This document shows positions 25,255 to 43,320 of a stretch of 64,000 nucleotides of DNA, piece by piece. The stretch is from assembly GCA_964483105.1 (NCBI GenBank), contig CAYZZU010000012.1:10275-74274 (forward strand). Reading direction: 5' to 3'. The DNA comes from an uncultured Nitrospirota bacterium. Lineage in GTDB: Bacteria > CG2-30-53-67. The translations under genes were made by a program, and so were the position numbers. Positions within the stretch are counted from its first letter, which is position 1. The number at the start of each line of letters is the position of its first letter. The notes beneath the pieces are model-generated. The model saw only the letters and a list, made by a program, of their open reading frames with translations, was not told the DNA's origin and did not search any database.

Positions 25255-26622
25255 ATGAAAGAACCAAGACCGCGCATCTTAATCTCCGCTCCACACCGGA
25301 GCTCGGGGAAATCCACGATCAGCCTCGGTCTTTGCGCCGCCTTCCGGAAGCGGGGGATTTCCATTCAGCCTTTCAAAAAGGGGCCGGATTTCATAGATCC
25401 GATGTGGCTTTCGGCCGCCTCGGGTCGGGAGTGCCGGAACCTGGACTTTTTCATGATGGGGAGGGAGTCGATCCGAAAGACTTTTGCCTCCGTGAGTGGA
25501 GGGGCCGATCTTTCCGTGATTGAGGGGAACATGGGTTTTTTTGACGGCCTTGATCCGGCGGGATCCGACAGTACCGCCGCCCTCTCCAGATTTCTGGAAA
25601 CCCCGTCGATTCTTGTTGTCAACGCCCGCCGCATGACGCGGGGTGTGGCGCCGCTGATCCAGGGCCACTTGGCGTTTGAACCTGAAACTCCGGTTCGGGG
25701 TGTGATCCTGAATCGTGTTCGGGGACTGCGTCATGAGAAAAAACTCCGGGAGGCACTGGGCCGCTATTGTGACATCGAGGTGGTGGGAGCGATTCCGGAC
25801 AGAAAAACCGCCTTCATCCAGGAGAGGCACCTGGGCTTGACACCGGTCAAGGAAGATTCCGCCTTTCCCCCCGTGATCGAAGAGATATCCGCCCTCCTGG
25901 AAGAGCATGTGGATCTCGACCGGGTGCTGGAAATCGCTCGTCGGGCGCCGTCCCTTGAGAGAGAACCGGGACGGGAGGAAACGTTCCCCACCCCCGATGT
26001 CCGGATCGGTATCGCCATGGATTCCGCCTTCACCTTCTATTATCCCGAGAACCTGGCCGCCCTCAGGAGGGCCGGCGCGGAGCTGATTCCTCTGGATACC
26101 CTCCGGGATCCTCATCTTCCGGAGGTCAATGCCCTGTATATCGGCGGGGGATTCCCCGAAGTTTTGATGGAGAAACTCGAGAAGAACGTCTCGCTTCGGG
26201 GGGAGATCCGGGCCCGGATAGAGGAGGGGATGCCGGTGTACGCCGAATGTGGAGGATTAATGTACCTGGGGCGTACGATTACCTACCAGGATGAAACCCG
26301 CTCCATGGTCGGGGCGCTCCCCCTGGACGTGACCATGCATCTCCGGCCCATGGGACACGGCTACGTGATTCTGGAGTCCGCCGGTGGGACCGTCTGGAAC
26401 GAAGGCGGGGCGGAAATCCGGGCACACGAATTCCACCATTCCCGGGTGGTGAACCTGGGCCAGGTTGATTTCGCCTACCGGATGCTCCGGGGGGAGGGAG
26501 TGGACGGTAAACACGACGGGATTTTGTACCGGAATGTCCTTGCCTCCTATGCCCATCTCCATTGCGAAGCAGCGCCCGGCTGGGCGGATCGTTTGACCGC
26601 GCTGGCGCGGAGATACGGATAG
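25255..26622 (+). CDS. cbiA: cobyrinate a,c-diamide synthase (CbiA/CobB family)
   Basis: N-terminal P-loop SGKST, CobQ/CobB/MinD-type ATPase plus C-terminal GATase domain, 455 aa. Confidence 0.75.
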   Translation: MKEPRPRILISAPHRSSGKSTISLGLCAAFRKRGISIQPFKKGPDFIDPMWLSAASGRECRNLDFFMMGRESIRKTFASVSGGADLSVIEGNMGFFDGLDPAGSDSTAALSRFLETPSILVVNARRMTRGVAPLIQGHLAFEPETPVRGVILNRVRGLRHEKKLREALGRYCDIEVVGAIPDRKTAFIQERHLGLTPVKEDSAFPPVIEEISALLEEHVDLDRVLEIARRAPSLEREPGREETFPTPDVRIGIAMDSAFTFYYPENLAALRRAGAELIPLDTLRDPHLPEVNALYIGGGFPEVLMEKLEKNVSLRGEIRARIEEGMPVYAECGGLMYLGRTITYQDETRSMVGALPLDVTMHLRPMGHGYVILESAGGTVWNEGGAEIRAHEFHHSRVVNLGQVDFAYRMLRGEGVDGKHDGILYRNVLASYAHLHCEAAPGWADRLTALARRYG

Positions 26623-26698
26623 CGGAAATGGATGCTTCCTGAAGGTCCACGGGTTCTGAATAAAGGTGTTGTAACCATCTTGAGAAAGGAGGAAGAGG

Positions 26699-26884
26699 AT
26701 GCCGTACGTCAATATCAAGTTGATCGGGAAATTGACCCACGACCAGAAGGCCGATATCGTCCGAGAGTTTTCCGAGACACTGGAGCGCGTGGCCGGTAAA
26801 CCGAGTGAACACACCTATGTCGTGATTGAAGAGGTGGATCGGGAGAACTGGGGCAAGGGCGGGAAACTCTTTTCCGACATGTAA
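26699..26884 (+). CDS. 4-oxalocrotonate tautomerase family protein
   Basis: 61 aa beginning MPYVNIKL (catalytic Pro1), with a strong SD AAGGAGGAAGAGG. Confidence 0.7.
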   Translation: MPYVNIKLIGKLTHDQKADIVREFSETLERVAGKPSEHTYVVIEEVDRENWGKGGKLFSDM

Positions 26885-26922
26885 CAGGGGCAGGCGGACT
26901 TTTACGAAGCCATCCGGTTTTC

Positions 26923-28053
26923 TCAGGGACTTCCGAAAGGATCCTGCCGGATCATCCGGATGATTTTCCGTCCTGTCGCCGGGAAAGGATAGCGTTCCAG
27001 GGCCGCCGGAAAGACCCAGCGGTACCGCTTTTCCATCCTTGCCTCCCGTTCCCGGCCGGAAGAGGGACACTCGAAGAGATGGATCGTGATCTGGAAGTGG
27101 GTGTAGGCGTGGCGGATTGCGGCGATTTCCTTCCCGGTTCGGATCTCCAGGCCGAAGTCGTATTTGACACCGAGACGCAGTGTTTCGGTCAATCCCTTCT
27201 TTGTGTTGTTTCTGTAGTTCGGGAAATCCCAGAGCCCTCCCAACAGGCCTTCTTCGGGACGTCGTTGAATCAGGATTCGCCCCCGTCTCCGGATGATCCC
27301 CATGGCCAGATCGTAATGTGGAAGGGGACCCCTGACCGTCGGGCGGGGGATTGTGTCCTGCAGGCGGAGCCGTTCGGCTTTGCAGTTTCCCGAGAGGGGA
27401 CAGGCCGGGCAGTCGGGTACCCGGGGGGTGCAGACCATGGCGCCCAGGTCCATGACGGCCTGTGTATAGGTGTGACTTTCCCTTTCCGGAGTGAGAAGGG
27501 CCGAAAGGTTCCAGAGCCTTTTTCGTGCGGCCGTTCTGGTCAGGTCTCCACGAACGGCGAAGAGGCGGGCGATAACCCGCTTCACGTTTCCGTCCAGGAT
27601 CGGGGCGGGAAGGTGGAAGGCCAGCGTCCGGATCGCCCCGGCCGTGGATCTCCCGATTCCGGGAAGACTCGTAAGCTCCTGTTCGGTATCGGGGATCCTC
27701 CCGTCCCATTGCTGCATGATGACCTTCGCGCAGCGGTGGAGGTTGCGTGCGCGGGTGTAGTAACCGAGTCCCTCCCAGACCTTGAGTACCTGTTCCAAAG
27801 GGGCGTCCGCCAGGTCCCTGACTGTTGGGAATCTGCTCAGAAATCGCTGATAATAAGGCAGAACGGTCTCCACGCGGGTTTGCTGGAGCATGATTTCCGA
27901 GACCCAGATCCGGTAGGGATCCCGTGTTTTCCTCCAGGGAAGATCCCTTCCGTTTCTTTTGTACCATGCCGTGAGATTTCTTTGAAGTTTCCGGATCCGG
28001 GCACGGTCCGGTTTGGAGGAGAGGTCGGGCATTGAATGATGGGTGTCGATCAC
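26923..28053 (-). CDS. mutY: A/G-specific adenine DNA glycosylase MutY
   Basis: HhH-GPD domain, 4Fe-4S Cys cluster CxxxxxxCxxCxxxxxC and a C-terminal NUDIX-like domain. Confidence 0.8.
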   Translation of the reverse strand: MIDTHHSMPDLSSKPDRARIRKLQRNLTAWYKRNGRDLPWRKTRDPYRIWVSEIMLQQTRVETVLPYYQRFLSRFPTVRDLADAPLEQVLKVWEGLGYYTRARNLHRCAKVIMQQWDGRIPDTEQELTSLPGIGRSTAGAIRTLAFHLPAPILDGNVKRVIARLFAVRGDLTRTAARKRLWNLSALLTPERESHTYTQAVMDLGAMVCTPRVPDCPACPLSGNCKAERLRLQDTIPRPTVRGPLPHYDLAMGIIRRRGRILIQRRPEEGLLGGLWDFPNYRNNTKKGLTETLRLGVKYDFGLEIRTGKEIAAIRHAYTHFQITIHLFECPSSGREREARMEKRYRWVFPAALERYPFPATGRKIIRMIRQDPFGSP

Positions 28054-28059
28054 GACTTT

Positions 28060-28641
28060 TTACAAGTTCCTCAAGGTGATGTCTTTCCGGGAAAGGATAT
28101 AGCCGATCAGCCGGTCGACACGTTCGGCCAGGCTCTGCGGGTCCGGTGTTTCTCCTTTGTTGACATAAAGGGCCGGGGCGCATTGGGCCAGTTGTTTTTT
28201 CAGCGCTGGGTCGCACTTCCTTGCGGAAAAGAAGATGATCGGAGTTTTTCCGGGAAGGGCCCTTTTCTGTTCCAGGGCACGCAGGGTCATTGCGGCTTTG
28301 AGGCCGTCCATGACAGGCATCTGCAGGTCCAGGATGACGAGACTGACGGCCTGGCCGGAGGAGATCCGTTTGTTGAATTCCGTCAGAAAAGTCATTCCGT
28401 TTTCGAAGGAGAGGACCTCCCGGGCGAGTTCTCTTTCCTGAAGAAACCGGGTGATCAGGTTTCGGATCAGGCTCGAATCGTCAGCGGTCAGGATGCACTC
28501 CGCCGTCTTCTTTTTCTTCTCCTCCTTGATTTCCAGGACGAAACCGCAGTACAGGCATGTAATCTCCGTGTTTCCCTCACGGTAGATCGTATTGGTCGGA
28601 ACATTCTCACCGCAACAGAGACAATATTGTGTCTCGTCCAT
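28060..28641 (-). CDS. response regulator receiver protein with N-terminal zinc ribbon
   Basis: CLCCG...CLYCG zinc ribbon followed by a REC domain (ILTADD...LDLQMP...K). Confidence 0.6.
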   Translation of the reverse strand: MDETQYCLCCGENVPTNTIYREGNTEITCLYCGFVLEIKEEKKKKTAECILTADDSSLIRNLITRFLQERELAREVLSFENGMTFLTEFNKRISSGQAVSLVILDLQMPVMDGLKAAMTLRALEQKRALPGKTPIIFFSARKCDPALKKQLAQCAPALYVNKGETPDPQSLAERVDRLIGYILSRKDITLRNL

Positions 28642-30085: not shown

Positions 30086-30970
30086 ATGCGAAAGAAAGTG
30101 AGGAAGAAGCCGGTGCGAGGGGAAGAGGCTTCGGGGTGCCTGGTCCGGATGCGGGGGGTTCTGCCGTCCCTCCACAGGGCGGAGAAAAAAGTGGCGGACT
30201 ACATCCTGTCCCATGCGGGTGAGATCATGCATCTGACCGTCAGTGAGGTGGCCGTGGGCGCAGGCGCTTCGGAGGCCACGGTGGTCCGGTTCTGCAGGAC
30301 GCTGGGGTACCGGGGGTATCAAGATCTCAAACTCAGTCTGGTCCGGGAGTCTGCTCCCGCGGTGAAGAGCATCGATGCGGAGCTTTCGACCTCTGACGAT
30401 GTCTCCACGATCTGCCGGAAGGTCTTTCTGAACAATATCCGGACCCTGGAGGATACTCTGAAGATCCTGGATGTCGGAGAGGTGGAACGTGCCGCGGAAT
30501 GTCTTCTCAAGGCCCGCAAGGTGTTGCTGATCGGTGTGGGAACTTCCTCTCCCTACGTCTATGATGCCTACAACAAGCTCTTTCGGCTGGGGATCGAATG
30601 TGATTGGCAGACCGACAGTCATCTTCAGGTGATGGCGGCATCCCTTCTGAAACGGGGGGATGTGGTGCTGGCGATTTCTCATTCGGGGAGCACCAAAGAC
30701 CCGATTGAGACGGTCGGAATCGCGAAGAAGGCGGGAGCCGTGGCGATCTGCATTACCAACAACTCGCTGTCACCTCTGGCCCAGGCTGCGGATATCCGTC
30801 TGTATACGGCCTCCGGGGAGACCCACTACCGGGCTGAGGCGCTTTCTTCACGGATCGCCCAGGTGAGTATCATCGACGTCCTGCATATGATCCTGGCCCT
30901 CAGGAACACCCGGAGGACGCTTGCGAATATGAAGAAGATAGAGGAGGCAATCGTCATCAAACAATATTGA
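30086..30970 (+). CDS. MurR/RpiR family transcriptional regulator (HTH_6 + SIS)
   Basis: N-terminal HTH and a SIS sugar-phosphate-binding domain. First gene of the BMC locus. Confidence 0.8.
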   Translation: MRKKVRKKPVRGEEASGCLVRMRGVLPSLHRAEKKVADYILSHAGEIMHLTVSEVAVGAGASEATVVRFCRTLGYRGYQDLKLSLVRESAPAVKSIDAELSTSDDVSTICRKVFLNNIRTLEDTLKILDVGEVERAAECLLKARKVLLIGVGTSSPYVYDAYNKLFRLGIECDWQTDSHLQVMAASLLKRGDVVLAISHSGSTKDPIETVGIAKKAGAVAICITNNSLSPLAQAADIRLYTASGETHYRAEALSSRIAQVSIIDVLHMILALRNTRRTLANMKKIEEAIVIKQY

Positions 30971-30999
30971 CGGTTTCGTAAAAAGTCCATCCGCTGCCA

Positions 31000-31644
31000 A
31001 TGATCAGGGGGGCCGGTAGAATGATTGATCTTCGAACCTTTATTTTTATGGATAGCCTGCAGCCGCAGATTGCCTGCTTCATCGGTTCTTCGGCCAAGGG
31101 GTTTCTCCCGCTGTCCGGAGATGCCTCTCTCTTTGTGGAGATCGCGCCGGGGATTGCCATCAACAAGATTACCGATGTGGCCCTGAAGGCGACGCGCGTC
31201 CGTCCCGCTGTTCAGATCGTGGAGCGGGCCTTCGGGGTGCTGGAGGTGCATGCCGAATCTCAGGGGCAGGTGAGGAGGGCCGGGGAAGCCATTCTGAATG
31301 AGTTGGGGTTCCGCGAGGAGGACCGTTTCCGGCCGAAGATCGTTTCGACCCAGATTATCCGGAAGGTGGATGCTCATCAGGCGCAACTGATCAACCGGAA
31401 TCGGAGGGGATCGATGTTGATTCCGGATCAGACCCTTTTCGTGATGGAAACCTGGCCGGCCGGTTATGCCATCTATGCGGCCAACGAAGCGGAGAAGGCG
31501 GCCGAGATCACGATCGTGGAGGTCCGGCCCTTTGGTGCCTACGGACGGATCTATCTCGGTGGCGAAGAGGCCGATATCATGGTCGGAAGCGAGGCTGCGG
31601 TTCGAGCGGTGGAGGAAATATCGGGAACCGAAAAGGAACAATAA
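31000..31644 (+). CDS. BMC-T shell protein (tandem BMC domains, PduB/EutL-like)
   Basis: Two BMC-like segments ([30 protein letters not shown] and [42 protein letters not shown]). An alternative start at 31021 has a better SD. Confidence 0.55.
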
Positions 31645-31646
31645 TC

Positions 31647-31976
31647 ATGCCGCCGGACTCAGGGCGGCAAGCTGCGAAGGAGAGTGTGATGGCTGAGGCG
31701 TTGGGTATGATCGAAACAAAGGGGTTCGCCGCCATGGTGGAGGCCTCCGATGCGATGGTCAAGGCGGCCAAGGTGGAGTTGGTCAGCTACGAGAAGATCG
31801 GAGGCGGCTATGTGACGGCGATCGTACGCGGGGATGTGGCGGCGGTCAAGGCTGCCACCGAGGCGGGCGCGCGGGGCGCCGAAAGGGTCGGTGACCTGGT
31901 GGCGGTCCATGTGATTCCGAGACCGCATGAGAATATCGACCGCACCCTGCCTCTGGGGAGACAGTCTCAGGAGTAA
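31647..31976 (+). CDS. BMC-H shell protein (PduA/EutM-like, PF00936)
   Basis: [58 protein letters not shown] is the canonical BMC domain. Confidence 0.9.
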
Positions 31977-32091
31977 TCCCTGTCACGATGTCTGTAAGGG
32001 GGAGTGCGGGCCCCGCCGGGGCCGAAACGCGCCGTTCGGTCCGGAGCCGGAAACCGGTGAAATGGGAGGTCTTTTTGACCGGGGGGATGTG

Positions 32092-32385
32092 ATGTATTTC
32101 GGGAAGATCGTCGGAACGGTAGTCTCTACGCGGAAAGACAAGGGCCTTGTGGGATTGACCTTGTTCGTTGTGCGGCAGATGGATATGGAAGGGGGGTTTA
32201 CCGGGGCCTATGTTGTGGCCTCCGACTCCGTGGGTGCCGGTGTCGGCGAAGTGGTCCTCTATGCCACCGGGAGTTCGGCCCGGCAGACCGAGGACACCCG
32301 GGACCGGCCCAATGACGCCGTGATCATGGCCATTGTGGATACCTGGGAGGTCGGCGGTCGGACTATCTTCCAGAAGAACGAGTAA
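32092..32385 (+). CDS. BMC-P vertex protein (EutN/CcmL family), paralog 1
   Basis: [16 protein letters not shown]...[12 protein letters not shown] is the EutN/CcmL fold. Start taken at the ATG at 32092 within the longer ORF. Confidence 0.8.
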
Positions 32386-32397
32386 TTCGAGGGATTC

Positions 32398-33852
32398 ATG
32401 CAATGGACTGAAGACCGGATCGCCTCCCTGGTCGACCGGGTGATCATATCGCTGAAAGAAGAGGGGGTTCTTCCCGAGTCTGGGCGGCCGTCTCTCCCGT
32501 CCGGCGGGGAAATCGCCGATTCCGGGGTCGGAGTCTTCCCGGATATGGACACGGCCCTGAAGGCCGCGCAACAGGCCTTTGAGGAATTCAGCCGGATCCC
32601 GATCGAGGCCCGGAAGGGAATCATCCGGGCCATGCGGGAGGCGGCTCTCGGGGAGGCGGTCTCCCTCGCCGAACTGGCCCGGGAGGAGACCGGTCTGGGC
32701 AGGGCCTCCGACAAGGCGGAAAAGAACCGGCTGGTCGCCGAGAAGACCCCGGGGGTGGAGGAGTTGCTTCCGGAGGCTTGGTCCGGCGATCACGGTCTGA
32801 CCCTGACGGAGCGGGCCCCCTTCGGGGTGATCGGGGCCGTCACCCCGGTGACCAATCCCTCCTCCACCATCATCTGCAACAGCATCGGAATGGTGGCGGG
32901 AGGCAATGCCGTGGTGTTCAATCCACATCCCACGGCCCGCAGGACGTCGATCGCCACCCTCACACTCCTGAACCGGGCGATCGCCTCGGCGGGCGGGCCC
33001 GAAACGCTCCTCTGTACGGTGAGACAGCCTACGATCGAGACCGCGGTGGAGTTGATGCATCACCGGGGGATCCGCCTTCTTGTGGTGACCGGAGGTCCGG
33101 GTGTGGTCCGGGCGGCCTTGAACAGCGGGAAAAAAGTGATCGCCGCGGGCCCCGGAAATCCGCCGGTCGTGGTGGACGAAACCGCCGACCTGGCCCGGGC
33201 GGCGCGGGATATTGTTCAGGGGGGATCCTTCGACAACAACCTGGTCTGTATCCTGGAAAAGGTGATTATCGTGGTGGAAGAGGTTGCCGATGAACTGAAA
33301 CGGGAGCTTGGCCGTCATTATGCCGTGGAGGTCCGGGGATCTTCGGCGCGCCGGTTGATCAGGAGAATCATCGCCGAGACCCGGGGGCCGAGAAAACGCG
33401 GTATTCCCGACAAGGCGTTCGTGGGAAAGGATGCCGCCTGGATCCTGCAGGAAGTGCTGGACCGGGAGGTGGATCCGGAGACCCGGATGGTCGTGATCGA
33501 GGTCGACCGGGAGAACCCGCTCGTCTGGACGGAGCAATTGATGCCGGTTCTTCCCCTGGTCCGTGTTCCGAACGTGGAGGAGGCCATCGCCTTCGCGAAA
33601 GAGGTCGAAGAGGGGTGCGGACATACCGCGTCGATGCATTCGAGGAATATCGAAAACCTGAGCCGGATGGCCCGCATGATCAACACCTCGATCTTTGTGA
33701 AGAACGGCCCCACACTGGCCGGTTTGGGCTACGGGGGAGAGGGGTTCACCTCTTTTACCATTGCGAGTCCCACCGGTGAGGGGCTGACCTCGGCGATTCA
33801 TTTTACGCGGAAACGGCGTTGCGTGATCGTTGATTCCTTCCGGATCGTTTGA
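32398..33852 (+). CDS. CoA-acylating aldehyde dehydrogenase (PduP/EutE family) with N-terminal encapsulation-peptide-like helix
   Basis: ALDH fold with the FDNNLVC catalytic-Cys region. N-terminal amphipathic DRIASLVDRVIISLKEEG followed by a Pro/Gly-rich linker. Confidence 0.85.
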   Translation: MQWTEDRIASLVDRVIISLKEEGVLPESGRPSLPSGGEIADSGVGVFPDMDTALKAAQQAFEEFSRIPIEARKGIIRAMREAALGEAVSLAELAREETGLGRASDKAEKNRLVAEKTPGVEELLPEAWSGDHGLTLTERAPFGVIGAVTPVTNPSSTIICNSIGMVAGGNAVVFNPHPTARRTSIATLTLLNRAIASAGGPETLLCTVRQPTIETAVELMHHRGIRLLVVTGGPGVVRAALNSGKKVIAAGPGNPPVVVDETADLARAARDIVQGGSFDNNLVCILEKVIIVVEEVADELKRELGRHYAVEVRGSSARRLIRRIIAETRGPRKRGIPDKAFVGKDAAWILQEVLDREVDPETRMVVIEVDRENPLVWTEQLMPVLPLVRVPNVEEAIAFAKEVEEGCGHTASMHSRNIENLSRMARMINTSIFVKNGPTLAGLGYGGEGFTSFTIASPTGEGLTSAIHFTRKRRCVIVDSFRIV

Positions 33853-33879
33853 ACCGGGAGATCCGAAAGAGGCGTGTTG

Positions 33880-35196
33880 ATGAGTAGTCTGGTCGATCAG
33901 GTCCGGGATGCGGGAGTGGTCGGGGCCGGCGGCGCGGGATTTCCCACGCATGTCAAGATCTCCGGGAACGCGGGGGTTGTGATTGCCAATGGGGCCGAGT
34001 GCGAACCCCTGCTTCGGGTGGACCGGCAGATCATGGACCGGTACGCGGGAGATGTGGTCCGGGGACTTTTACGGGTGATGGAGGCCGTGGGGGCGGGGGA
34101 AGGGGTCATCGCCTTAAAAGAGAAGTACCGTCAGGCGACGGCGTCACTGGAGAAGGAGATCGCGGGGATTTCCGGGGTCCGGCTCCATCTCCTGGAAAAC
34201 TTCTATCCGGCGGGAGATGAACAGGTCCTGATACAACAGGTGACCGGGAAGGTGGTGCCGGAGGGGGGGATTCCTCTCGATGTCGGCGTCCTGGTCCAGA
34301 ATGTTGCGACACTGCGGAATATTGAATGGGCCGCGCGGGGCATCCCGGTCACGGAAAAGATCGTCACGGTGACCGGGGCGGTACCACGCCCCGCGACCGT
34401 CAGCGTTCCGATCGGGACCCCTGTTTCGGAATTGATCCGGGACCGCGGCGGGGCGGAACCGGAGAAGTTCGAGGTGATCCTGGGGGGACCGGTGATGGGG
34501 CGGCTTGCCGGCGTCGACGACACGATCGGCAAGACCACTGGAGCCGTGATTGTACTCCCCGCGGATCATCCGGTGGTGCTTTCCCGGAAAATCAATCTTT
34601 CGGTTCAGGTACGAAGGGCGCGGTCGGTCTGCGACCAGTGTCTCGCCTGCACGGAGAGGTGCCCCCGGTTCCTGCTTGGACACGAAATCGAGCCCCACCG
34701 GATGATGCGCGCCGTAATGCACGACCTGGAGACACCTACCGGGGCGATCACCCAGGCCTATCTCTGCTGCGGCTGTAGGCTCTGCGAGTATGCCTGTCCG
34801 GTTCTGCTTTCGCCGGTCAGTCTTTTCTCCGAGATCCGGAGGAGACTGGCGGAAAAAAAAGTGCTCAATCCACACCGCCGGAAGGACTGCGTTCCTCATG
34901 AATGGATGGAGATGCGCCGGGTTCCGGTGGACCGGCTGCTTCAATCCCTGCATCTTGAGGAATACGACCGGGAGGCACCGCTTTCGGAAGCGGGTTTTCA
35001 GCCCCGGCGGGTGTCGATTTCCCTTCAGCAGCACATCGGGGCTCCGGCCATCCCGGCGGTTGACGAGGGGGATCGCGTCCGGCGGGGGGACCGGATCGCC
35101 GAAATCCCGGAAGGGAGATTGGGGGCGACGCTTCATGCCTCCATCGATGGCACGGTGCGGCGGGTACGGGAACGGATTGTGATTGAGAAGGGGTAG
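33880..35196 (+). CDS. PduS/RnfC-like flavo-iron-sulfur protein (SLBB domain + two 4Fe-4S motifs)
   Basis: GAGGAGFPTHVK NADH/FMN-binding region, then CDQCLACTERCP and CCGCRLCEYACP ferredoxin motifs. GTG at 33874 is an alternative start. Confidence 0.7.
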   Translation: MSSLVDQVRDAGVVGAGGAGFPTHVKISGNAGVVIANGAECEPLLRVDRQIMDRYAGDVVRGLLRVMEAVGAGEGVIALKEKYRQATASLEKEIAGISGVRLHLLENFYPAGDEQVLIQQVTGKVVPEGGIPLDVGVLVQNVATLRNIEWAARGIPVTEKIVTVTGAVPRPATVSVPIGTPVSELIRDRGGAEPEKFEVILGGPVMGRLAGVDDTIGKTTGAVIVLPADHPVVLSRKINLSVQVRRARSVCDQCLACTERCPRFLLGHEIEPHRMMRAVMHDLETPTGAITQAYLCCGCRLCEYACPVLLSPVSLFSEIRRRLAEKKVLNPHRRKDCVPHEWMEMRRVPVDRLLQSLHLEEYDREAPLSEAGFQPRRVSISLQQHIGAPAIPAVDEGDRVRRGDRIAEIPEGRLGATLHASIDGTVRRVRERIVIEKG

Positions 35197-35234
35197 CCCT
35201 TCGGGAGCGGGAAGAGGGTCAAGGTGGAGGGAAG

Positions 35235-35798
35235 ATGAGTCCTGTTGGTTCGGAGCCTGCGCTCGGGCTCATTGAGTTTAACAGCATTGCCCAGGGGATT
35301 CATGCCTCGGACGAGATGATCAAGAAAGCTCCGATCCGGATGATTGAGAGCCGGACCGTCTGTCCGGGGAAGTATATCGCCCTGATTGTGGGTGATGAGG
35401 CCTCGGTAGAGGACTCCGTCCGGATCGGTCTGGAAGTGGGGGGACATTCGGTCGTGGATCAGCTCTTTCTTCCGAATCTCCATCCGCAGGTCACCCCGGC
35501 CATTACGGGGACCACGGAGATCTCCGGGATCATCGCCCTGGGGGTGATCGAGACCTTTTCCGTTGCCGGAGCCGTTCTCTCGGCCGACACAGCCGTCAAG
35601 GCGGCCGGGATCCGGCTGATCGAAATCCGTCTGGCCAACGGCCTCGGTGGTAAGTCCTTTTTCACATTGACCGGAGAGTTGCCTGACGTTCTCGCCGCCG
35701 TTGAGGCGGGAACCGGGATCATCCGGGAGGAGGGTCTCCTCGTGAACCAGGTGGTTTTGCCTAAACCGCATGGGGAGTTGACGAAGTTTCTGGTTTGA
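35235..35798 (+). CDS. BMC-T shell protein, PduT-like (tandem BMC domains, Cys at pore position)
   Basis: Two PF00936 repeats (ALGLIEFNSIAQG... and ALGVIETFSVAGAV...), 187 aa. Cys in RTVCPGKY is reminiscent of the PduT 4Fe-4S ligand. Confidence 0.75.
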   Translation: MSPVGSEPALGLIEFNSIAQGIHASDEMIKKAPIRMIESRTVCPGKYIALIVGDEASVEDSVRIGLEVGGHSVVDQLFLPNLHPQVTPAITGTTEISGIIALGVIETFSVAGAVLSADTAVKAAGIRLIEIRLANGLGGKSFFTLTGELPDVLAAVEAGTGIIREEGLLVNQVVLPKPHGELTKFLV

Positions 35799-35817
35799 GA
35801 ATCAGGAGTCGGGAGCC

Positions 35818-36126
35818 ATGTTCCTTGGCAGGGTGCTGGGCACCGTGGTGGCCACAATGAAGAGTGAGGGACTGGAGGGGGTGAAACTCCTGATCGTTCA
35901 GCCGCTGAATCACAATCTGGATCCGGTCCAAGAGCCGATCGTAGCGGCGGATTCAGTCCAGGCCGGTCCCGGGGAGCTGGTCTTTCTGGAAGACGGGCGG
36001 GAGGCCTCCCTCTGCCTTCCCGTACCTTTTGTCCCCGTGGATGCCTCGGTCATCGGTCATGTGGACCGCGTGAATCTTCCGGGAGGCGTGAGCCCGGCTC
36101 CGCGGGAGGGGGGGCAAAGATGCTGA
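35818..36126 (+). CDS. BMC-P vertex protein (EutN/CcmL family), paralog 2
   Basis: MFLGRVLGTVVATMKSEG...VAADSVQAG is the EutN/CcmL fold. Confidence 0.8.
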   Translation: MFLGRVLGTVVATMKSEGLEGVKLLIVQPLNHNLDPVQEPIVAADSVQAGPGELVFLEDGREASLCLPVPFVPVDASVIGHVDRVNLPGGVSPAPREGGQRC

Positions 36127-36416
36127 TCGGAAGGGTCATCGGGGATATTGTCTCCACGGTCTGCGACACCTCCTTTGAGGGGAAGAAGCTCCTTCTGATT
36201 CAACCTCTGGACCCGGAGGGCGGAGAGTACGGAGATTCCCTGGTTGCGGCCGATTCCGTGCAGGCCGGTCTGGGGGAGACGGTACTCCTCTTATGGGAGG
36301 GCTCCTCGGCCAGGCTCTGTTTCGGGATGGATTCGGCGCCGGTGCGTACCATGGTGGTCGGGGTCATCGATTCGGTGGATCTGGAACCGCTGGAATCCGC
36401 GCTTTCAGGGGAGTAG
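36120..36416 (+). CDS. BMC-P vertex protein (EutN/CcmL family), paralog 3
   Basis: MLIGRVIGDIVSTVCD...VAADSVQAG. Overlaps the previous gene by 7 nt. Confidence 0.8.
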   Translation: MLIGRVIGDIVSTVCDTSFEGKKLLLIQPLDPEGGEYGDSLVAADSVQAGLGETVLLLWEGSSARLCFGMDSAPVRTMVVGVIDSVDLEPLESALSGE

Positions 36417-36421
36417 GGGAT

Positions 36422-37246
36422 ATGGTTGAGCGGAGGAAAACGGAACGGGAATTAAGGCTGGAGATCGTGGAAATCTGCCGGCGGATGTACGAAAAGGATC
36501 TGGTGGCGGCCACGGATGGGAATGTGAGTGTGCGGCTCCGGAAGGACCGGATCCTGGCTACGCCGAGCGGGCTCCACAAGGGAATTCTGAAAGTGGAGGA
36601 CCTGATCGTTACCGACCTGCAGGGACGGAAATGTTCCGGTGAACACAGACCTTCGTCGGAGCTCAGGATGCATCTGAAGGTTTACAGGGAGCGTCCCGAT
36701 GTCTCGGCCGTGATCCACGCCCATCCGCCGGTCAGTACCGCCTTTACCATTGCCGGGGTCTCCCTGGCCCGGTGCATCCTGCCGGAGGTGGTCCTGACCA
36801 TGGGGGGGATTCCGACCACGCAGTATGCCATGCCGACCTCCGAGCAGGGGCCGGAGGTGATCGAGGAGTTTATCGGAAAATGTGACGCCATGCTGCTGGA
36901 CCGGCATGGAACCCTGACCGTGGGCGACTCGCTCCAGGCCGCCTTCCATAAGCTGGAGAAGGTGGAACATGCGGCGAAAATCACCTGGATGGCCCGCCAA
37001 CTGGGGCATGTCCGGACACTGGAACCGAAGGAGATCGGGGATCTGCTGGAAACCCGAGAACGACTTGGTTTAAAAGGCAGGATCTACCACTGTTCCGATT
37101 GCGGGGCCTGCGGAAAGAAGAGAAGGGATGGGAGCGACTGGTCACAGGAGGACCGGGAAAGGAAGAGAGTCGACGAAGAACGGCTGGTTTCCCTGATCCT
37201 GGACCGGGTGAAAAAGGTCCTTTCCCCGGCATCCGGTTCTTCATAA
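36422..37246 (+). CDS. class II aldolase/adducin family protein (fuculose/rhamnulose-1-phosphate aldolase-like) with C-terminal extension
   Basis: Aldolase_II core (HAHP metal-binding His) over ~215 aa. It has a ~60-aa tail with CSDCGACG and an amphipathic EERLVSLILDRVKKVL helix. SD GGGGAG precedes the ATG at 36422. Confidence 0.8.
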   Translation: MVERRKTERELRLEIVEICRRMYEKDLVAATDGNVSVRLRKDRILATPSGLHKGILKVEDLIVTDLQGRKCSGEHRPSSELRMHLKVYRERPDVSAVIHAHPPVSTAFTIAGVSLARCILPEVVLTMGGIPTTQYAMPTSEQGPEVIEEFIGKCDAMLLDRHGTLTVGDSLQAAFHKLEKVEHAAKITWMARQLGHVRTLEPKEIGDLLETRERLGLKGRIYHCSDCGACGKKRRDGSDWSQEDRERKRVDEERLVSLILDRVKKVLSPASGSS

Positions 37247-37594
37247 ACAATGGGTAAAGAAGAACTCCGCAGGAATCCTGATATTTTCGTAATAAACAAA
37301 ACGCATAAAGAGAAAGCCTTATTTTTTTTCTTGAACATCAAGCGGGATCCTGTTATTTTCTGCCGATAGAAGATTTCGGGCGAGCTTCGGGCGGGTTTAA
37401 TTCTTTTTTGTTTTTCCATTACCCTCTGTTTTTTCCGGATCGTGGTTCTTGATTTCTCAAGATTCGTCCCGGGATCGCGACAGGCAGTCCGGATCAGGGA
37501 TTCTGTTTCAAAGAGGAAGATTGCGGCAGGGACCGTCTGGATTCCTCATTCTGCTTCCGTGAAATCCGGATTCATGCCGGAGGAGGATGGAAAG

Positions 37595-38485
37595 ATGCCC
37601 CGGATGGAAGCCGTGGACGCCAAACCTTTCCTGACGGAGTCGGAATTCACCGGTCTCGTCCGAATGATCTCCAAGCGTACCTCTGTTGATTTCCTCAATT
37701 ACAAAAAAAATTTTTTGAAAAGGCGGCTTCATCACCAACTGATGAAGTACCGTCTCTCCTCCTGGGAAGAGTATTCCGAGCTGCTGGCGGAGGGAAGGAT
37801 CGGTTCTCCGGAATTGATCAACGATTTTACGATTCACGTGACCCGCTTCTTTCGCGACCCCGCTCTCTTTGAGTATCTGAACAAACGGGTTTTCCGGCGT
37901 CTCTGGAAGCGACACCTGGCCCGGGGTGACCGGGAATTCCGGATCTGGGTCATGGGGTGTTCGACCGGAGAAGAGGCTTACTCCGTAGCCATTTCGCTCC
38001 TGGAGGCCGTCCGTCCGGATCTCACGCGGGATCCCATCCGTATTTTCGCCACCGATCTGGATGAAAAGGCGATTGAATATGCCCGGCGCGGAGAATATGG
38101 GTCCCAGTGGATATCGGGAGTGAAACCGGAGTTGAGAAAGAGGTATTTCCTTCCCGGATCCAGGGGGAAGGTGGTTCCCCGACTGCGTCGCATGATCCTT
38201 TTCGGCCGGCATGATCTCCTGAGGAATCCCTCGATTCTTCACCTGGATATGGTTTTTTGCAGGAATGTCCTGATCTTTCTGGATCGTTCGATACAGCATT
38301 CGCTCTATATGAAGTTTTATGATTCATTGAAGCCCGGTGGGATCCTGGTGATGGGGAGGGCCGAGTCTCCGACCCCCCATTCCCGTCAGGGAAGGTTCGA
38401 GCCCCTCTCTCTGGCGAACCGTGTTTTCAGAAAACAGGAGGTCCGTACTGATCCGGAGGGGCGAAGAGAGGGGAAAAAACCGTGA
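37595..38485 (+). CDS. cheR: CheR-type protein-glutamate O-methyltransferase
   Basis: CheR N-terminal helical domain plus SAM-binding motif (WVMGCSTGEEAYS). Start chosen at the ATG with SD GGAGGAGG. Stop overlaps the start of the downstream kinase (ATGA). Confidence 0.75.
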   Translation: MPRMEAVDAKPFLTESEFTGLVRMISKRTSVDFLNYKKNFLKRRLHHQLMKYRLSSWEEYSELLAEGRIGSPELINDFTIHVTRFFRDPALFEYLNKRVFRRLWKRHLARGDREFRIWVMGCSTGEEAYSVAISLLEAVRPDLTRDPIRIFATDLDEKAIEYARRGEYGSQWISGVKPELRKRYFLPGSRGKVVPRLRRMILFGRHDLLRNPSILHLDMVFCRNVLIFLDRSIQHSLYMKFYDSLKPGGILVMGRAESPTPHSRQGRFEPLSLANRVFRKQEVRTDPEGRREGKKP

Positions 38486-41400
38486 AGATCCGGAACAAGG
38501 TGATGCTGGGGCTGCTTATTGTCGGGGCAATTCTTTTTGCGAGCTCCCTGGTAGGGATTCACTATTTCCAGGAGGAAAACCGTGCCGACCTGCGACACAG
38601 AGTATACGGGCTGAAACTGGAGAGGGCTCAGGCGCTACACCGTTCCATCGACCGGGCGCTCAGAGCGGTTCACCGTTATTTCATCCTGGGCGACCTCAAG
38701 GGAAAACAACAGTTTTTCAAGTCCTACCGGGAGTTTTCCTCCAGGCTTCGGGGGATTCAGGGGGAGTTGCCCGAGGTGGAGGGGCGGCCCCTTCTGAGAG
38801 AGACCGCGGAGCGGATCCGGAATACCGCGGAGCGGTTTTTCCGGATTGCGAATCCCGTGGAGAGTCCCGAGGCGAAACAGGCCGTGGAGCGGATCGACGC
38901 GCTTACCGGGCAGGTGGACCGGCTCCTGGACGGAATGGCCGCACGATGGCAGGAACAGAAAGAAAAGGCCGTCGAGGCGGAAGCGGTGATGCACCGGCGG
39001 CTTTTTGACTCGATCTGTCTTCTGATTCTTTTCCTGGTCTCCGGGGGGTTCTTCAGCGTTTTTTATTTTTCCAGGCTCATTTCAGGGCCTTTCCGTGACC
39101 TGATGCGCTCGGCTCAGGAAATCGGGAATGGGGATTTCTCCCGGCGTCTGGATGATCAACGGAAGGATGAGTTCGGAATCATGAACCGGACCTTCAATCT
39201 CATGCTGGATGCCGTGGAAGAGAGGGAAAGCGCCCTGCGCGAGAAAAACCGGGCACTGAACGCGGCGATCGAAGAGCTGGCGCGGACGAACGAAAGGATG
39301 CAGCTCAACAACGAAGAACTGGAGTCGACCAATGAGGAACTCCAGATCTCCAGCGAAGAGCTCGAGTCGGCGAACGAAGAGCTGAACCTCTCCAACCAGG
39401 AACTGGAGGTTAAAACGCGTGAACTGATCGAGACACGGGATTTGCTCCAAAAAAAGAATGAGGAGATCAAGAGGGGACATGACTTTCTCGAGACGGTCAT
39501 TAATTCCACCAATAGCGGGATCTGCGTGATCCGGCCTGATTTTACGATCGAGTCCGCAAACCGTGCGATTCAGAAGATGACCGGCTACACCGGGTCGGAG
39601 CTGATCGGTTCATTTTGCTATGAAATGTTCCAGGGAAGATCCGAACCCTGCAGCGATTGTCCGGCGCGAAAGGTCTTTACCGGCGGGGGTGTCCAGAGGG
39701 AACACCATTGCCACGTCACAAAGGACGGACGGGAGATCATCAGTGACATGACCGCCACGCCCCTGTTCGGAAAGGAAGGTCAGGTGGAGAGGGTCATCGA
39801 GACCCTGAACGATGTCACGGAGGTGGTTCACCTGACTCATGCCCTTTCGGAACAGAAGGAGCGGATGCGCTCGATCCTCATGAACATGGGGGAAGGGGTT
39901 TCCGTGATCAATCGTGCCCATGAGATTGAGTTTATCAACGATACCCTGCGGAAACGTTTCGGGGAGATTGAAGGTCAGAAGTGTTACAAGGCCTTTCGGG
40001 GATTGGCGCGCCCCTGTAACGGCAAGGAACCCTGTTCCCTGGTAGAGATCCTGGAGAAGGGACGAAAGCTCTTCGAGGTGACTAAACGGAACGAGGACGG
40101 CCGTTACTATCGTATGACGTCGGTTCCGCTTGCCAATCCGGACGGAACGACCTCCATGATACAGATCCGTCAGGATGTGACCGATGAGAAAAGGCTCGAG
40201 GAGGAGCGGCGGCGATATACGGAGCAACTGGAAGAGCTGAACCGGAGGATGGAAAAGGAGGTTGAAAAAAGGACGCAGGAACTCCTGGATGCCAACACGG
40301 AATTGAGGCTGGCCAATGAACGGCTCCGTGAGGTGAACCGGGAGAAATCCGAATTTATCGATATCGCCGTGCACGATCTCAGGACCCCCTTGACTTCCAT
40401 TGTGAGTTATGCCGATCTTCTGCGGAAATACAAGGATGAACCCGAGGAAACCCGCATGGAGTTCCTCGGGATTATTATCCAGGAGAGTTTCCGGATGACC
40501 CGTCTGATCAATGATTACCTGGACCTCTCCAAGCTTGAATCCGGTTACGTGGATTTCAAGGAAGAAAACGTGGATATGCATGCCCTGCTGGAACAGGTCT
40601 TTCAAACCTTCCAGGTCAGGGCGGACAAGAAACGGGTCCGCCTCGACCTCCGGGTTCCCTCTTCGTTGCCCCGGTTTGTGGGTGATGCCGAGAGACTCAA
40701 GCAGGTCTTTACCAACCTGATCGACAACGCGATCAAGTACACGCCCGCCGGTGGAGAAATCTCCGTGCAAGGGGAGGTAATGGAGAGGCCGGCACGCTTC
40801 CGGTTTACGGTCCGGGACAACGGGATCGGCATTGATGAACAGGGGCAGAAGGTACTCTTCAAGAAATTCGGACGGATCCGGGACCGGAAAATGAAAAAAC
40901 ACCAGGGAAGCGGGCTGGGACTCTCCATCGTCAAGACCATCGTGGAACATTATCGTGGAACGATTCATGTAGAGAGCGGGAAAGGGGAAGGCGCCGCCTT
41001 TTTGATCACGCTGCCCTTGAATCGCGAATCCTTTCAGGTGCGACACGCAAGTTCGGTTGACTCCTCCACGTCGGAGCTGGTCCGCCAGATCGTTCCGATC
41101 TCCCGGGAATATCTGGATCGGAATTTTCTCTGCGCATTCTTCGGCGCGTCACTGGACATCGATCAGATCAAGAAGGCGCTTGCCGGTGAGGGCGTCCCGG
41201 TTTATGATTTCATGGAGAAGGAGCAGTTGATTTTCAGTTCGGCGCGGATCCCTCTGTTTTCCAGGGGAAGATTTGACGGGAATCATCTTTTTGAACGCGT
41301 ACGGAATTTCTATGACCGGGTGGTCCAGTCGGAATGGGAGGGGCTCCTGGTAGTGCGGGATATGACACGACTGTTTTCCGAGAACAAGGTGAGTCGGGAC

Positions 41401-41592
41401 ATTCTGTATTTCGAAAAGAAGCTGGAAGCCTATCTGAGCCGTTTTTCAAAACCGGTGATTCAGATCTGCCATTACGATCCTGTTCCTTTTCCGGAGCCGG
41501 AAATGGAAGGTCTGGAGAAGATCCATCCTTTTCAGTTATTGCACGGGAAGATCGTGCCGCGGAATCATGGCGGGAACCGGCATGGATCATAG
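38482..41592 (+). CDS. multidomain sensor histidine kinase (TM sensor-HAMP-coiled coil-PAS x2/3-HisKA-HATPase-C-terminal MEDS-like domain)
   Basis: Two TM helices flank a ~170-aa periplasmic helical sensor. HAMP, an EELES(T/A)NEEL heptad-repeat coiled coil, PAS domains, H-box HDLRTPL and HATPase N/G boxes. The C-terminal ~280 aa resemble a MEDS domain. Confidence 0.7.
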   Translation: MKIRNKVMLGLLIVGAILFASSLVGIHYFQEENRADLRHRVYGLKLERAQALHRSIDRALRAVHRYFILGDLKGKQQFFKSYREFSSRLRGIQGELPEVEGRPLLRETAERIRNTAERFFRIANPVESPEAKQAVERIDALTGQVDRLLDGMAARWQEQKEKAVEAEAVMHRRLFDSICLLILFLVSGGFFSVFYFSRLISGPFRDLMRSAQEIGNGDFSRRLDDQRKDEFGIMNRTFNLMLDAVEERESALREKNRALNAAIEELARTNERMQLNNEELESTNEELQISSEELESANEELNLSNQELEVKTRELIETRDLLQKKNEEIKRGHDFLETVINSTNSGICVIRPDFTIESANRAIQKMTGYTGSELIGSFCYEMFQGRSEPCSDCPARKVFTGGGVQREHHCHVTKDGREIISDMTATPLFGKEGQVERVIETLNDVTEVVHLTHALSEQKERMRSILMNMGEGVSVINRAHEIEFINDTLRKRFGEIEGQKCYKAFRGLARPCNGKEPCSLVEILEKGRKLFEVTKRNEDGRYYRMTSVPLANPDGTTSMIQIRQDVTDEKRLEEERRRYTEQLEELNRRMEKEVEKRTQELLDANTELRLANERLREVNREKSEFIDIAVHDLRTPLTSIVSYADLLRKYKDEPEETRMEFLGIIIQESFRMTRLINDYLDLSKLESGYVDFKEENVDMHALLEQVFQTFQVRADKKRVRLDLRVPSSLPRFVGDAERLKQVFTNLIDNAIKYTPAGGEISVQGEVMERPARFRFTVRDNGIGIDEQGQKVLFKKFGRIRDRKMKKHQGSGLGLSIVKTIVEHYRGTIHVESGKGEGAAFLITLPLNRESFQVRHASSVDSSTSELVRQIVPISREYLDRNFLCAFFGASLDIDQIKKALAGEGVPVYDFMEKEQLIFSSARIPLFSRGRFDGNHLFERVRNFYDRVVQSEWEGLLVVRDMTRLFSENKVSRDILYFEKKLEAYLSRFSKPVIQICHYDPVPFPEPEMEGLEKIHPFQLLHGKIVPRNHGGNRHGS

Positions 41593-41652
41593 GATCCTCC
41601 AGTCCAGCCGGTTTGACTCGTTTCATGAATCGGGCGGGGTCCGGGGGGTCCT

Positions 41653-43041
41653 ATGAAACCGAAACTTCTGATCGTGGATGACGATGAAGAGATCCTCAAG
41701 CAGCTCAAGTGGGCCTTCAAGGAGGACTTCTCCATCTTCCTGGCCACCGACCGGGAGGCTGCGATTCAGTCCTTTCAACGGCACAGCCCGGATCTTGTCG
41801 CTCTGGATCTCGGACTCTCACCGCACATGGGGGGGGGGAGTGACGATGAAGGGATTGAAATCCTGCGCATGGTTCTGAAACAGGAACCCCTCACCAAGGT
41901 GATCATGATCACGGGGAACGAAATGCGGGAATACGCGATCCGGTCGATTCAGATGGGGGCCTTTGATTATTACTCCAAGCCGATCGATCTGGAAGAATTA
42001 CGCTTCATTCTGAAGCGGGCTCTCCATATCCAGGGACTTGAAAAAGAAAATCTCAGATTGCGAAAGGAGGTTCTCCAGAAGGAACAGTTTGCCGGGATGA
42101 TCGGATGGTCTCCCGCCATCCAGGAAGTCTATCAACAGATCGAAGGGGTGGCCGAAAGCAACGTGACGGTCCTGATCGAAGGGGAGAGTGGAACCGGCAA
42201 GGAACTGGCGGCCAGAGCGGTTCATGAGAGGAGCGGGCGCAGGAAAGCCCCCTTCGTGGTAATCAATTGTGGAGCGATCCCGGAAAACCTTCTGGAGTCC
42301 GAGCTCTTCGGTCATGAAAAGGGGGCCTTTACCGGCGCCGCCGCCACAAAGATCGGGAAATTCGAACAGGCGGACCGGGGGACCCTCTTTCTGGACGAGA
42401 TCGGGGAACTTCCCCTGCAGCTTCAGGTGAAGCTTCTCCGTTTTCTGCAGGACCATCAGATTGAACGGATCGGGGGGCGGCATCCGGTCAAGATCGATGT
42501 CCGGGTTATCGCCGCGACCAACCGCTCCCTGGAGGAAGAAGTGGAAGCGGGACGGTTTCGCAAGGATCTCTATTTCCGGTTGAATGTGGTCCGGATTCAT
42601 CTGCCTCGTCTCAAGGACCGGATCGGGGATCCGATCCTTCTGGCATATTATTTTCTGGACCTGTACCGTGGGGAACTGCAAAGCAAGGTCAATGGTTTCA
42701 CCGCCGAGGCGGAGCTTTCCATCAAGACCGCGGAGTGGGAGGGAAATATCCGGGAACTGGAGAACAGGGTTCGCAAGGCCTTGATCGTTGCGCGCGGACC
42801 CCTGATCACGGAAGTGGATCTGGATCTTGACTATAAAGAAAATGCCGTCCCGCTTTCTCTCAAGGAGGCCCGGGAGGAACTGGACAGGAAGTATATCCAC
42901 CTCGCCCTCCGGAACAACCACGGAAATATCAGCCAGGCCGCCAGGGAACTTGGAATCAGCCGGGTCAGCCTCCATGATCTGATCCGGAAGTATGGAATCA
43001 GGGTGAGGCATGGGGAGAGCAATCAGGAAAGGGGGGTGTAG
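41653..43041 (+). CDS. sigma-54-dependent Fis-family response regulator
   Basis: REC (with a Gly-rich insertion), AAA+ GESGTGKE, GAFTGA and a C-terminal HTH. Confidence 0.8.
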   Translation: MKPKLLIVDDDEEILKQLKWAFKEDFSIFLATDREAAIQSFQRHSPDLVALDLGLSPHMGGGSDDEGIEILRMVLKQEPLTKVIMITGNEMREYAIRSIQMGAFDYYSKPIDLEELRFILKRALHIQGLEKENLRLRKEVLQKEQFAGMIGWSPAIQEVYQQIEGVAESNVTVLIEGESGTGKELAARAVHERSGRRKAPFVVINCGAIPENLLESELFGHEKGAFTGAAATKIGKFEQADRGTLFLDEIGELPLQLQVKLLRFLQDHQIERIGGRHPVKIDVRVIAATNRSLEEEVEAGRFRKDLYFRLNVVRIHLPRLKDRIGDPILLAYYFLDLYRGELQSKVNGFTAEAELSIKTAEWEGNIRELENRVRKALIVARGPLITEVDLDLDYKENAVPLSLKEAREELDRKYIHLALRNNHGNISQAARELGISRVSLHDLIRKYGIRVRHGESNQERGV

Positions 43042-43320
43042 GTTTCCTTTACACACCTAACTGGTTGAATTATTACGAAAAATACTTAATTTGGCATATA
43101 ATCTTCGAAATTGTGTCGGATTTCTTTACATTTCATGATCCGACAGCTCTTGCCCTTTACGGTTTTTCTCTTTCCCTTCTGTGAAAAATAACGATAAATA
43201 TCATGAGGTTGGAAGTATGGTCGAATAAGATGGTATGAAAATTGCTGTTTCTCCACTTCGAGGACAAAACGTTCAGTGAAATGGAAGATTCTAATGTGTT
43301 ATCCTGAAAGAGGTGGCGAA

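Follow-up and report, generated by a model that had tools for sequence, protein, structure and literature searches.

A probable aldehyde-oxidising metabolosome with a PduS/PduT-type electron-export module in an uncultured Nitrospirota bacterium

How does a metabolosome regenerate its NAD+ when the alcohol dehydrogenase (ADH) and the phosphotransacylase (PTAC) of the canonical core are not encoded near it? This question is raised by a bacterial microcompartment (BMC) gene cluster of an uncultured Nitrospirota bacterium, situated in a 64-kb stretch of DNA (positions 10,275 to 74,274 of contig CAYZZU010000012.1, assembly GCA_964483105.1) which was analysed as a whole and is referred to here as the window. 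The window is part of an 83-kb source contig, and its flanks of about 19 kb were covered by JGI gene calls with Pfam assignments. The cluster consists of ten co-oriented and tightly spaced genes on the + strand (30086-37246), with which the JGI gene calls independently agree; their coordinates are given in Table 1. The original prediction, made from the letters of the sequence, had dealt with the span 32398-36424. This span takes in the middle five genes, but it ends three bases into an aldolase gene and omits the aldolase and the four upstream genes. The positions proposed for the aldehyde dehydrogenase (AldDH), for a PduS-like protein and for a tandem-domain shell protein (BMC-T) were all borne out by Pfam and by the gene coordinates. 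From the results presented below we conclude that the cluster probably encodes an aldehyde-oxidising metabolosome of the catalogued SPU5/HO-related kind (HO, Haliangium ochraceum), in which NAD+ is regenerated electrochemically instead of by an ADH.

The NADH dehydrogenase and its shell partner

The gene directly following that of the AldDH encodes, as predicted, a PduS-like protein of 438 residues with a GAGGAGFP loop and two Cys motifs, all of which were located in the sequence. PduS homologs have been renamed metabolosome NADH dehydrogenase, MNdh (Sutter et al., PNAS November 2024, PMC11626177). The protein is composed of Complex1_51K (PF01512), SLBB (PF10531), 4Fe-4S dicluster (Fer4_17) and C-terminal RnfC_N (PF13375) domains. 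Its residues 5-311 align to residues 122-417 of RnfC, and residues 360-432 to RnfC residues 14-84 (7ZC6 chain C, E 5.5e-51), a two-stretch alignment that indicates the circular permutation setting PduS-type proteins apart from RnfC. The flavin mononucleotide (FMN)/NADH-binding, SLBB and two [4Fe-4S] domains are homologous to those of RnfC, a part of the Rnf ferredoxin:NAD+ oxidoreductase, whereas the barrel-sandwich domain is C-terminal in MNdh and N-terminal in RnfC, the partner is a shell protein and not a membrane complex, and no other rnf genes accompany it. The Gly-rich loop was found in 119 of the 120 nearest homologs. All eight Cys ligands for two 4Fe-4S clusters are present, in the motifs CDQCLACTERCP and CCGCRLCEYACP; the last spacing of the second motif is the canonical three residues, in contrast to the spacing of four (CCxCxxCxxxxCP) in 91 of the 120 nearest homologs. 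The protein is at most 54% identical to any MNdh in the databases, a search of genome contigs of species representatives returned relatives at no more than 47% identity, and it has no encapsulation peptide (EP).

The shell protein gene starts 38 bp 3' of the MNdh end (35196 to 35235), in the same locus as the AldDH gene, which ends at 33852. Its product aligns without gaps, over residues 7-184, to PduT structures and is 45-57% identical to crystallised homologs; the structure matches are the Desulfitobacterium PduT homolog 3NWG (E 5e-54), Citrobacter PduT 3PAC (E 4.5e-43) and HO-T1 5DIH (E 5e-27). A Cys at the PduT position had been anticipated for this protein, and Cys43 in VCPGKY does align gaplessly to the Cys38 of Citrobacter PduT, which is residue 58 of the 3PAC chain once a tag of 20 residues is included in the count. 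The same position is Ser in the Salmonella PduT chain of 3N79. The CPGK motif is kept in all seven of the MNdh-associated single-layer BMC-T proteins (BMC-Ts) that were aligned, and we infer that three Cys43 residues at the trimer axis would hold a 4Fe-4S cluster. At the level of sequence, all defining features of MNdh and of its shell partner, BMC-T^SE, are present in this pair.

The mechanism put forward by the original prediction, that NADH made by the encapsulated AldDH is reoxidised by electron export through the shell, is the published MNdh/BMC-T^SE model (PMC11626177), and the idea of a PduS-PduT conduit was floated earlier still (Axen 2014). All sequence features that the hypothesis needs are in place, but the novelty that it implied could not be upheld, since both the idea and the locus type had been described before. 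Of more than 7,000 BMC loci, 2,172 contain MNdh, exclusively ones of AldDH-containing BMC types; in 97% of cases its immediate neighbour is a BMC-Ts, in which CP(G/S)K is universally conserved. MNdh and BMC-T^SE are found together without ADH in 361 loci, and 1,725 MNdh loci do have an ADH (PMC11626177). The model is supported in vitro by NADH oxidation assays, electron paramagnetic resonance, voltammetry and X-ray footprinting, with potentials of -0.147, -0.217 and -0.349 V for Fe-S clusters and of -0.284 and -0.459 V for FMN (PMC11626177). The Clostridium botulinum homolog, from a GRM1 locus, has been shown to form the complex and to oxidise NADH, and both the order of its cofactors and their potentials have been determined (PMC11626177). 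Both systems have a four-domain permuted RnfC-like protein adjoining a CP(G/S)K tandem shell protein in an AldDH locus without ADH; the context here, however, is SPU5/HO-like and not GRM or PDU. By analogy, the pair described here would act like its C. botulinum homolog.

Missing core enzymes, the aldolase and a proposed pathway

The claim that neither PTAC nor ADH is encoded within about 7 kb of the locus holds across the whole 64-kb window and the rest of the 83-kb contig. Every sizeable open reading frame (ORF) of the window was scanned with Pfam, and the window was searched in six frames by tblastn with two PduL proteins from related loci and with E. coli EutD and EutG as seeds; as a positive control, E. 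coli EutE found the AldDH at 3e-142. The Pfam scans gave no match to PF06130, PF01515, PF00465 or other dehydrogenase families in these ORFs, and the best E value of the PduL, EutD and EutG seeds in the window was 0.09. In the window and the gene calls of its flanks there is no Fe-ADH, Zn-ADH or lactate/malate-type dehydrogenase, and DeoC, RpiB and TIM are likewise absent from the window (Pfam scans and six-frame tblastn) and from the rest of the contig. B12-dependent enzymes (EutBC, PduCDE) and radical enzymes were found neither in the locus nor in the window. The contig offers neither the encapsulated phosphotransacylase nor the encapsulated alcohol dehydrogenase that a canonical complete core of the PDU/EUT kind would contain.

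The block Tdp-H-P-AldDH-MNdh-Ts-(P-P)-aldolase (Tdp, H and P denoting shell proteins BMC-Tdp, BMC-H and BMC-P) recurs in four other metagenomic lineages, none of which has PTAC or ADH within 9-10 kb. Locus L088 (JGI ML7) reads Tdp-H-P-AldDH-MNdh-[GAF protein]-Ts-P-P and L094 (an ENA metagenome contig) Tdp-H-P-AldDH-MNdh-Ts-aldolase, both without extra enzymes. The order of L089 (GCA_964478075.1) is RpiB-DeoC-Tdp-H-P-AldDH-MNdh-[IVP]-Ts-P-P-aldolase, RpiB and DeoC being its extra enzymes; L091 (a JGI metagenome contig) keeps the L089 order with several genes inserted and has no extra enzymes. Matters are different in two SPU1/4-like loci, L052 from Myxococcales and L030 from Endomicrobia, which have PduL, TIM, RpiB and DeoC around their AldDH-MNdh-Ts core. 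Because the block recurs in other lineages, the architecture without PTAC and ADH is a stable, recurrent state and not an accident of one contig. Absence of PTAC is also a known, still unexplained trait of SPU5, HO and MIC-type loci.

The genes lying between MNdh and BMC-T in three of these loci depart from the published immediate adjacency. They encode a 1052-residue GAF-repeat protein in L088 (4601-7759), a protein of the 23S-rRNA-IVP family in L089 (10408-10872) and toxin-antitoxin-like products in L091 (10382-13082).

Two enzymes of the cluster bear EPs. The AldDH scores 644 bits on the NCBIfam PRK15398/EutE-type model (cutoff 403), is 53% identical to E. coli EutE, has 5JFL as its top structure match (E 7.7e-135) and retains the catalytic Cys in FDNNLVC. 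Its N-terminal EP, residues 4-21 (EDRIASLVDRVIISLKEE), is followed by a Pro/Gly/Ser linker and is common to its relatives; the nearest of these in the databases, at 61-63% identity, stand in H-P-AldDH mini-loci and in one RpiB-DeoC-Tdp-H-P-AldDH locus. The second enzyme, a class II aldolase, retains the metal-binding and catalytic residues (PSSE, HAH, RHG; a FucA-type Glu and three His), and its C-terminal EP, EERLVSLILDRVKKVL, closely resembles the AldDH peptide EDRIASLVDRVIISL. Its nearest database relatives are about 60% identical. No specific function could be obtained from NCBIfam, where its equivalog scores lie far under the cutoffs, or from a PDB search, which returned the FucA family at E ~1e-24. 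The aldolase is the only candidate for a signature enzyme which generates the aldehyde in this cluster.

The segment that joins the aldolase core to its EP contains a CxxCxxC motif (HCSDCGAC here), which is shared by 89 of the 120 nearest homologs, with CxxC in 10 more; an alignment of 60 sequences shows C224 and C230 conserved at 90% or more. The motif is also found in BMC-linked aldolases of L089 (12220-13053), L091 (14345-15088), L006 (13516-14370) and L094 (9001-9768), and in the stand-alone satellite aldolase of L095 (9001-9780). In an AlphaFold2 monomer model the core and the EP helix (242-267) are predicted with confidence and the loop of the Cys motif with low confidence. No description of the motif was found in the literature searched; its Cys residues may bind a metal or respond to the redox state.

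In the pathway that we propose, a phosphosugar sensed by the regulator encoded at the head of the cluster (RpiR type, with a SIS domain) would enter the shell; the SIS domain fits a phosphosugar inducer. By analogy with the PVM and GRM5 types, the EP-tagged aldolase would split a ketose-1-phosphate into dihydroxyacetone phosphate and a two- or three-carbon aldehyde (lactaldehyde, glycolaldehyde or acetaldehyde), which the EP-tagged EutE-type AldDH would convert to acyl-CoA with formation of NADH. As experiments with the homolog suggest, binding to the trimer of BMC-T^SE, on the side facing the lumen, would keep MNdh inside, where it would oxidise the NADH at its FMN; electrons would then move by way of the two 4Fe-4S clusters of MNdh to a further one at the pore, held in place by Cys43 from each of the three BMC-T^SE subunits. 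A cytosolic carrier, likely a ferredoxin or flavodoxin feeding anaerobic respiration, would accept them, and no alcohol by-product would be formed. Since there is no PTAC, acyl-CoA and CoA would presumably have to move in and out of the shell, for which the large gated BMC-Tdp pore is the most plausible route. Shell proteins of this type form stacked trimers with such a pore, and the closest solved structure to the one encoded here is Haliangium HO-5816 (E 2.8e-79).

The surmise that such a coupling would suit a respiratory anaerobe fits the genes on the contig. One side carries sat, then qmoCBA-like genes and an aprA-like gene, the last of which runs off the end of its locus and has a single Pfam hit, and the opposite side carries a TAT-exported FdnGHI-like molybdoenzyme (both sides together: window 5-1189 and, beyond the window, L093 13653-21383 and L092 2178-6693). 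Of the AldDH, MNdh, BMC-T and seven housekeeping proteins of the contig, nearly all are singletons when clustered at 90%, AtpD among them, and PilB is missing from the collection searched. Because of the sat, qmo-like, aprA-like and fdn-like genes, the host is probably a sulfate-respiring anaerobe which would be able to use exported electrons.

Locus type and alternative explanations

SPU5 is represented in the 2021 catalog by 8 loci from Proteobacteria and Chloroflexi (Sutter 2021, PMC8217296). These always contain AldDH and never PF02502, have PF01791 in half of the loci and possess a PF00596 aldolase (PMC8217296, Supplementary Data 2). The AldDH, which is nearest to the HO type, carries an EP at its N terminus and the aldolase one at its C terminus. 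The shell is made up of a triplet of BMC-P, a single BMC-H of the standard kind and a BMC-Ts that is associated with PduS and has a cysteine at the pore, joined in some loci by a BMC-Tdp of the CsoS1D clade; PTAC and ADH are not listed and the genomes are without satellite loci (PMC8217296). Each catalog trait is matched by the cluster described here: both EPs, the BMC-P triplet (the first member is 35-38% identical to the other two), BMC-H, the BMC-Ts cysteine, BMC-Tdp and the lack of RpiB. It differs in that it has no DeoC/DERA and in that the RpiR/SIS regulator stands where L089 has RpiB and DeoC. The stricter curated SPU definition of 2024, which asks for DERA (PF01791) or RPI (PF02502), or both, beside AldDH, does not apply to the locus because neither DeoC nor RpiB is on the contig.

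The resemblance to the HO BMC is also extensive: one BMC-H, three BMC-P, a BMC-Tdp (closest to HO-5816), a BMC-Ts, an EP-bearing AldDH and an aldolase beside two BMC-P genes, with no PTAC or ADH. The shell gene order of the Haliangium main locus, which we take to be Tdp-H-P-AldDH-Ts, matches the order here. On the other hand, HO-T1 is without the pore Cys and the HO main locus has no MNdh, while here MNdh stands between AldDH and BMC-Ts; the BMC-T^SE scores 186 bits against 3NWG and 150 against PduT as compared with 98-103 against HO-T1. We considered filing the cluster as HO type II and rejected this on account of its PduT-type BMC-Ts with pore Cys and of the MNdh in the main locus. With the PVM and GRM5 types of fucose and rhamnose degradation it shares the principle that a FucA-family aldolase makes an aldehyde out of a ketose-1-phosphate and an acylating AldDH takes over from there; however, the PduL, acetate kinase and lactate/malate-type dehydrogenase of PVM and the glycyl-radical diol dehydratase of GRM5 are all absent here.

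Some points weigh against our assignment to an electrochemically recycling metabolosome of the SPU5/HO-related kind. For the C. botulinum module, O2 is the only acceptor shown in vitro and the acceptor in vivo is unknown (PMC11626177). Electron export leaves CoA recycling unsolved, and the substrate of the aldolase and the identity of the aldehyde are guesses because no NCBIfam equivalog cutoff was reached. The absence of PTAC and ADH covers the 83-kb contig, and a satellite PTAC, ADH or DERA could possibly lie elsewhere in the genome; some HO genomes do carry an EP-bearing DeoC at distant sites (Sutter 2021, PMC8217296).

The last point leads to the alternative that survives best, namely that the core is complete, with an EP-tagged PTAC and/or ADH (perhaps also DERA and RPI) at a satellite locus, and that MNdh and BMC-T^SE have a supporting part only, recycling NAD+ under certain conditions as in Salmonella Pdu. 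Most MNdh loci, the 1,725 mentioned above, do have an ADH as well (PMC11626177), L052 and L030 have PduL, TIM, RpiB and DeoC beside the AldDH-MNdh-Ts block, RpiB and DeoC lie directly 5' of the block in L089, HO-type BMCs often have satellite loci, and in L095 an EP-bearing aldolase stands on its own. Nevertheless, the 83 kb of contig hold no PTAC or ADH, the catalog gives SPU5 genomes neither satellite loci nor these enzymes (PMC8217296), and the four other lineages with the block are likewise devoid of them in the 9-10 kb around it. We therefore consider a complete core unlikely, with a small but real chance of being true.

A bolder form of our own interpretation would make the cluster a fully oxidative metabolosome wired into anaerobic respiration and forming neither alcohol nor acyl-phosphate. 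The aldolase would be the sole source of aldehyde, acyl-CoA would leave through BMC-Tdp, all reducing power would pass as electrons through MNdh and BMC-T^SE to the sulfate-reduction chain, and the CxxCxxC of the aldolase would have a function in metal binding or redox chemistry. This motif might bind Fe-S or Zn, or act as a thiol switch tying the packaging or activity of the aldolase to the redox state set by MNdh. That this whole combination is correct seems to us decidedly unlikely.

It has also to be considered whether there is no internal recycling at all, with NAD(H), CoA and acyl-CoA exchanging through the BMC-Tdp pore and PduS/PduT serving corrin reduction (the first proposal for PduS), oxygen scavenging or electron import. 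An HO-5816-like BMC-Tdp is indeed present, and the authors of the MNdh model allow for low-throughput cofactor exchange through larger pores and for O2 as acceptor (PMC11626177). A cobyrinate a,c-diamide synthase-like gene (CbiA and GATase_3; 25255-26622) lies about 3.5 kb 5' of the locus, but four opposite-strand genes (MutY, a response regulator, glutaredoxin and a metallo-beta-lactamase hydrolase) stand in between. A B12-related role suggested by this CbiA-like gene was rejected since no B12-dependent enzyme is present. Moreover, MNdh is found only together with AldDH, and its fold leaves scant space for a corrin (PMC11626177). Free exchange is very improbable, because neither a B12-dependent nor a radical enzyme occurs in the window.

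Finally, that the locus is a decaying SPU remnant which has lost DERA, RPI and PTAC and forms no working organelle would agree with the absence of the SPU signature enzymes of the 2024 definition and with the unrelated genes between MNdh and BMC-T in related loci, but it is extremely improbable, since none of the ten ORFs is broken and they lie close together in one orientation, the residues for catalysis, the EPs of both enzymes, every Cys ligand and the full shell set (H, three P, Tdp, Ts) are retained, and the reduced architecture recurs in distant lineages.

Feature coordinates, neighbouring genes and significance

Table 1. Genes and motifs of the microcompartment cluster, in window coordinates
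Feature	Position	Strand	Basis
RpiR/MurR-family regulator, HTH_6 and SIS phosphosugar-binding domain	30086..30970	+	Pfam; NCBIfam scores under equivalog cutoffs
BMC-Tdp, permuted tandem-domain shell protein, 207 aa	31021..31644	+	CsoS1D_N and BMC (JGI calls)
BMC-H, hexamer shell protein, 95 aa	31689..31976 (alternative start 31647)	+	Pfam; motifs DAMVKAAK, IPRPH
BMC-P, pentamer protein 1 of triplet	32092..32385 (alternative start 32062)	+	Pfam, gene calls
CoA-acylating AldDH, EutE/PduP type	32398..33852	+	PF00171, NCBIfam, structure match
MNdh, PduS-type metabolosome NADH dehydrogenase, 438 aa from ATG	33880..35196 (alternative start 33874)	+	Pfam, NCBIfam, alignment
MNdh Gly-rich FMN/NADH loop GAGGAGFP, aa 15-22	33922..33945	+	alignment to RnfC GlvGmGGAtFP
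MNdh 4Fe-4S ligand motifs CDQCLACTERCP (aa 251-262) and CCGCRLCEYACP (aa 296-307; 34765-34800)	34630..34800	+	motif location in sequence
BMC-T^SE, PduT-type single-layer tandem shell protein, 187 aa	35235..35798	+	two BMC domains (PF00936); structure matches
BMC-T^SE pore motif CPGK (Cys43)	35361..35372	+	alignment to PduT Cys38
BMC-P, pentamer protein 2	35818..36126	+	Pfam
BMC-P, pentamer protein 3	36120..36416	+	Pfam
Class II (FucA/RhaD-family) aldolase, 274 aa, with C-terminal extension	36422..37246	+	Pfam PF00596, NCBIfam, structure search
Aldolase CxxCxxC motif CSDCGAC, aa 224-230	37091..37111	+	homolog alignment
Aldolase C-terminal encapsulation peptide EERLVSLILDRVKKVL	37175..37222	+	relatives' alignment; predicted helix 242-267

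The RpiR/SIS regulator gene lies 50 bp 5' of the shell genes on the same strand. Pattern scans for sigma-70 promoters, terminators and sigma-54 sites around the operon gave matches at chance level. Directly 3' of the operon (37442-43041) are genes for CheR, for a 1036-residue HAMP-PAS-kinase with a C-terminal MEDS domain and for a sigma-54 response regulator. A sigma-54-like box, TGGTATGAAAATTGCT (43231-43246), is situated just 5' of the gene of a PEP-CTERM protein (43276) and none was seen 5' of the BMC genes; such boxes occur in the window about as often as chance predicts. Because this box precedes the PEP-CTERM gene and not the BMC genes, the CheR, kinase and sigma-54 regulators probably do not control the BMC. 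Elsewhere in the window, a type IV pilus set, pilB-pilT-pilC-pilS-pilR, occupies 3459-10937 on the - strand (T2SSE, T2SSE, T2SSF, a PilS-like kinase and a sigma-54 response regulator). Two long antisense ORFs on the - strand, 31846-33951 (701 residues) and 26279-28216 (645 residues, no Pfam match), which overlie the AldDH gene and genes 5' of it, look like artefacts of high GC content and not like genes, because neither is in the JGI gene calls.

The cluster is a well-preserved, single-operon example of a rare SPU5/HO-related microcompartment, apparently from a sulfate-respiring bacterium, and it leaves current understanding unchanged. In it, MNdh and BMC-T^SE sit where the Haliangium model shell has a BMC-T without the cysteine. 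It offers a natural system for the questions left by the 2024 work, that is, the electron carrier, the recycling of CoA without a phosphotransacylase and the substrate of the HO/SPU5 aldolase.

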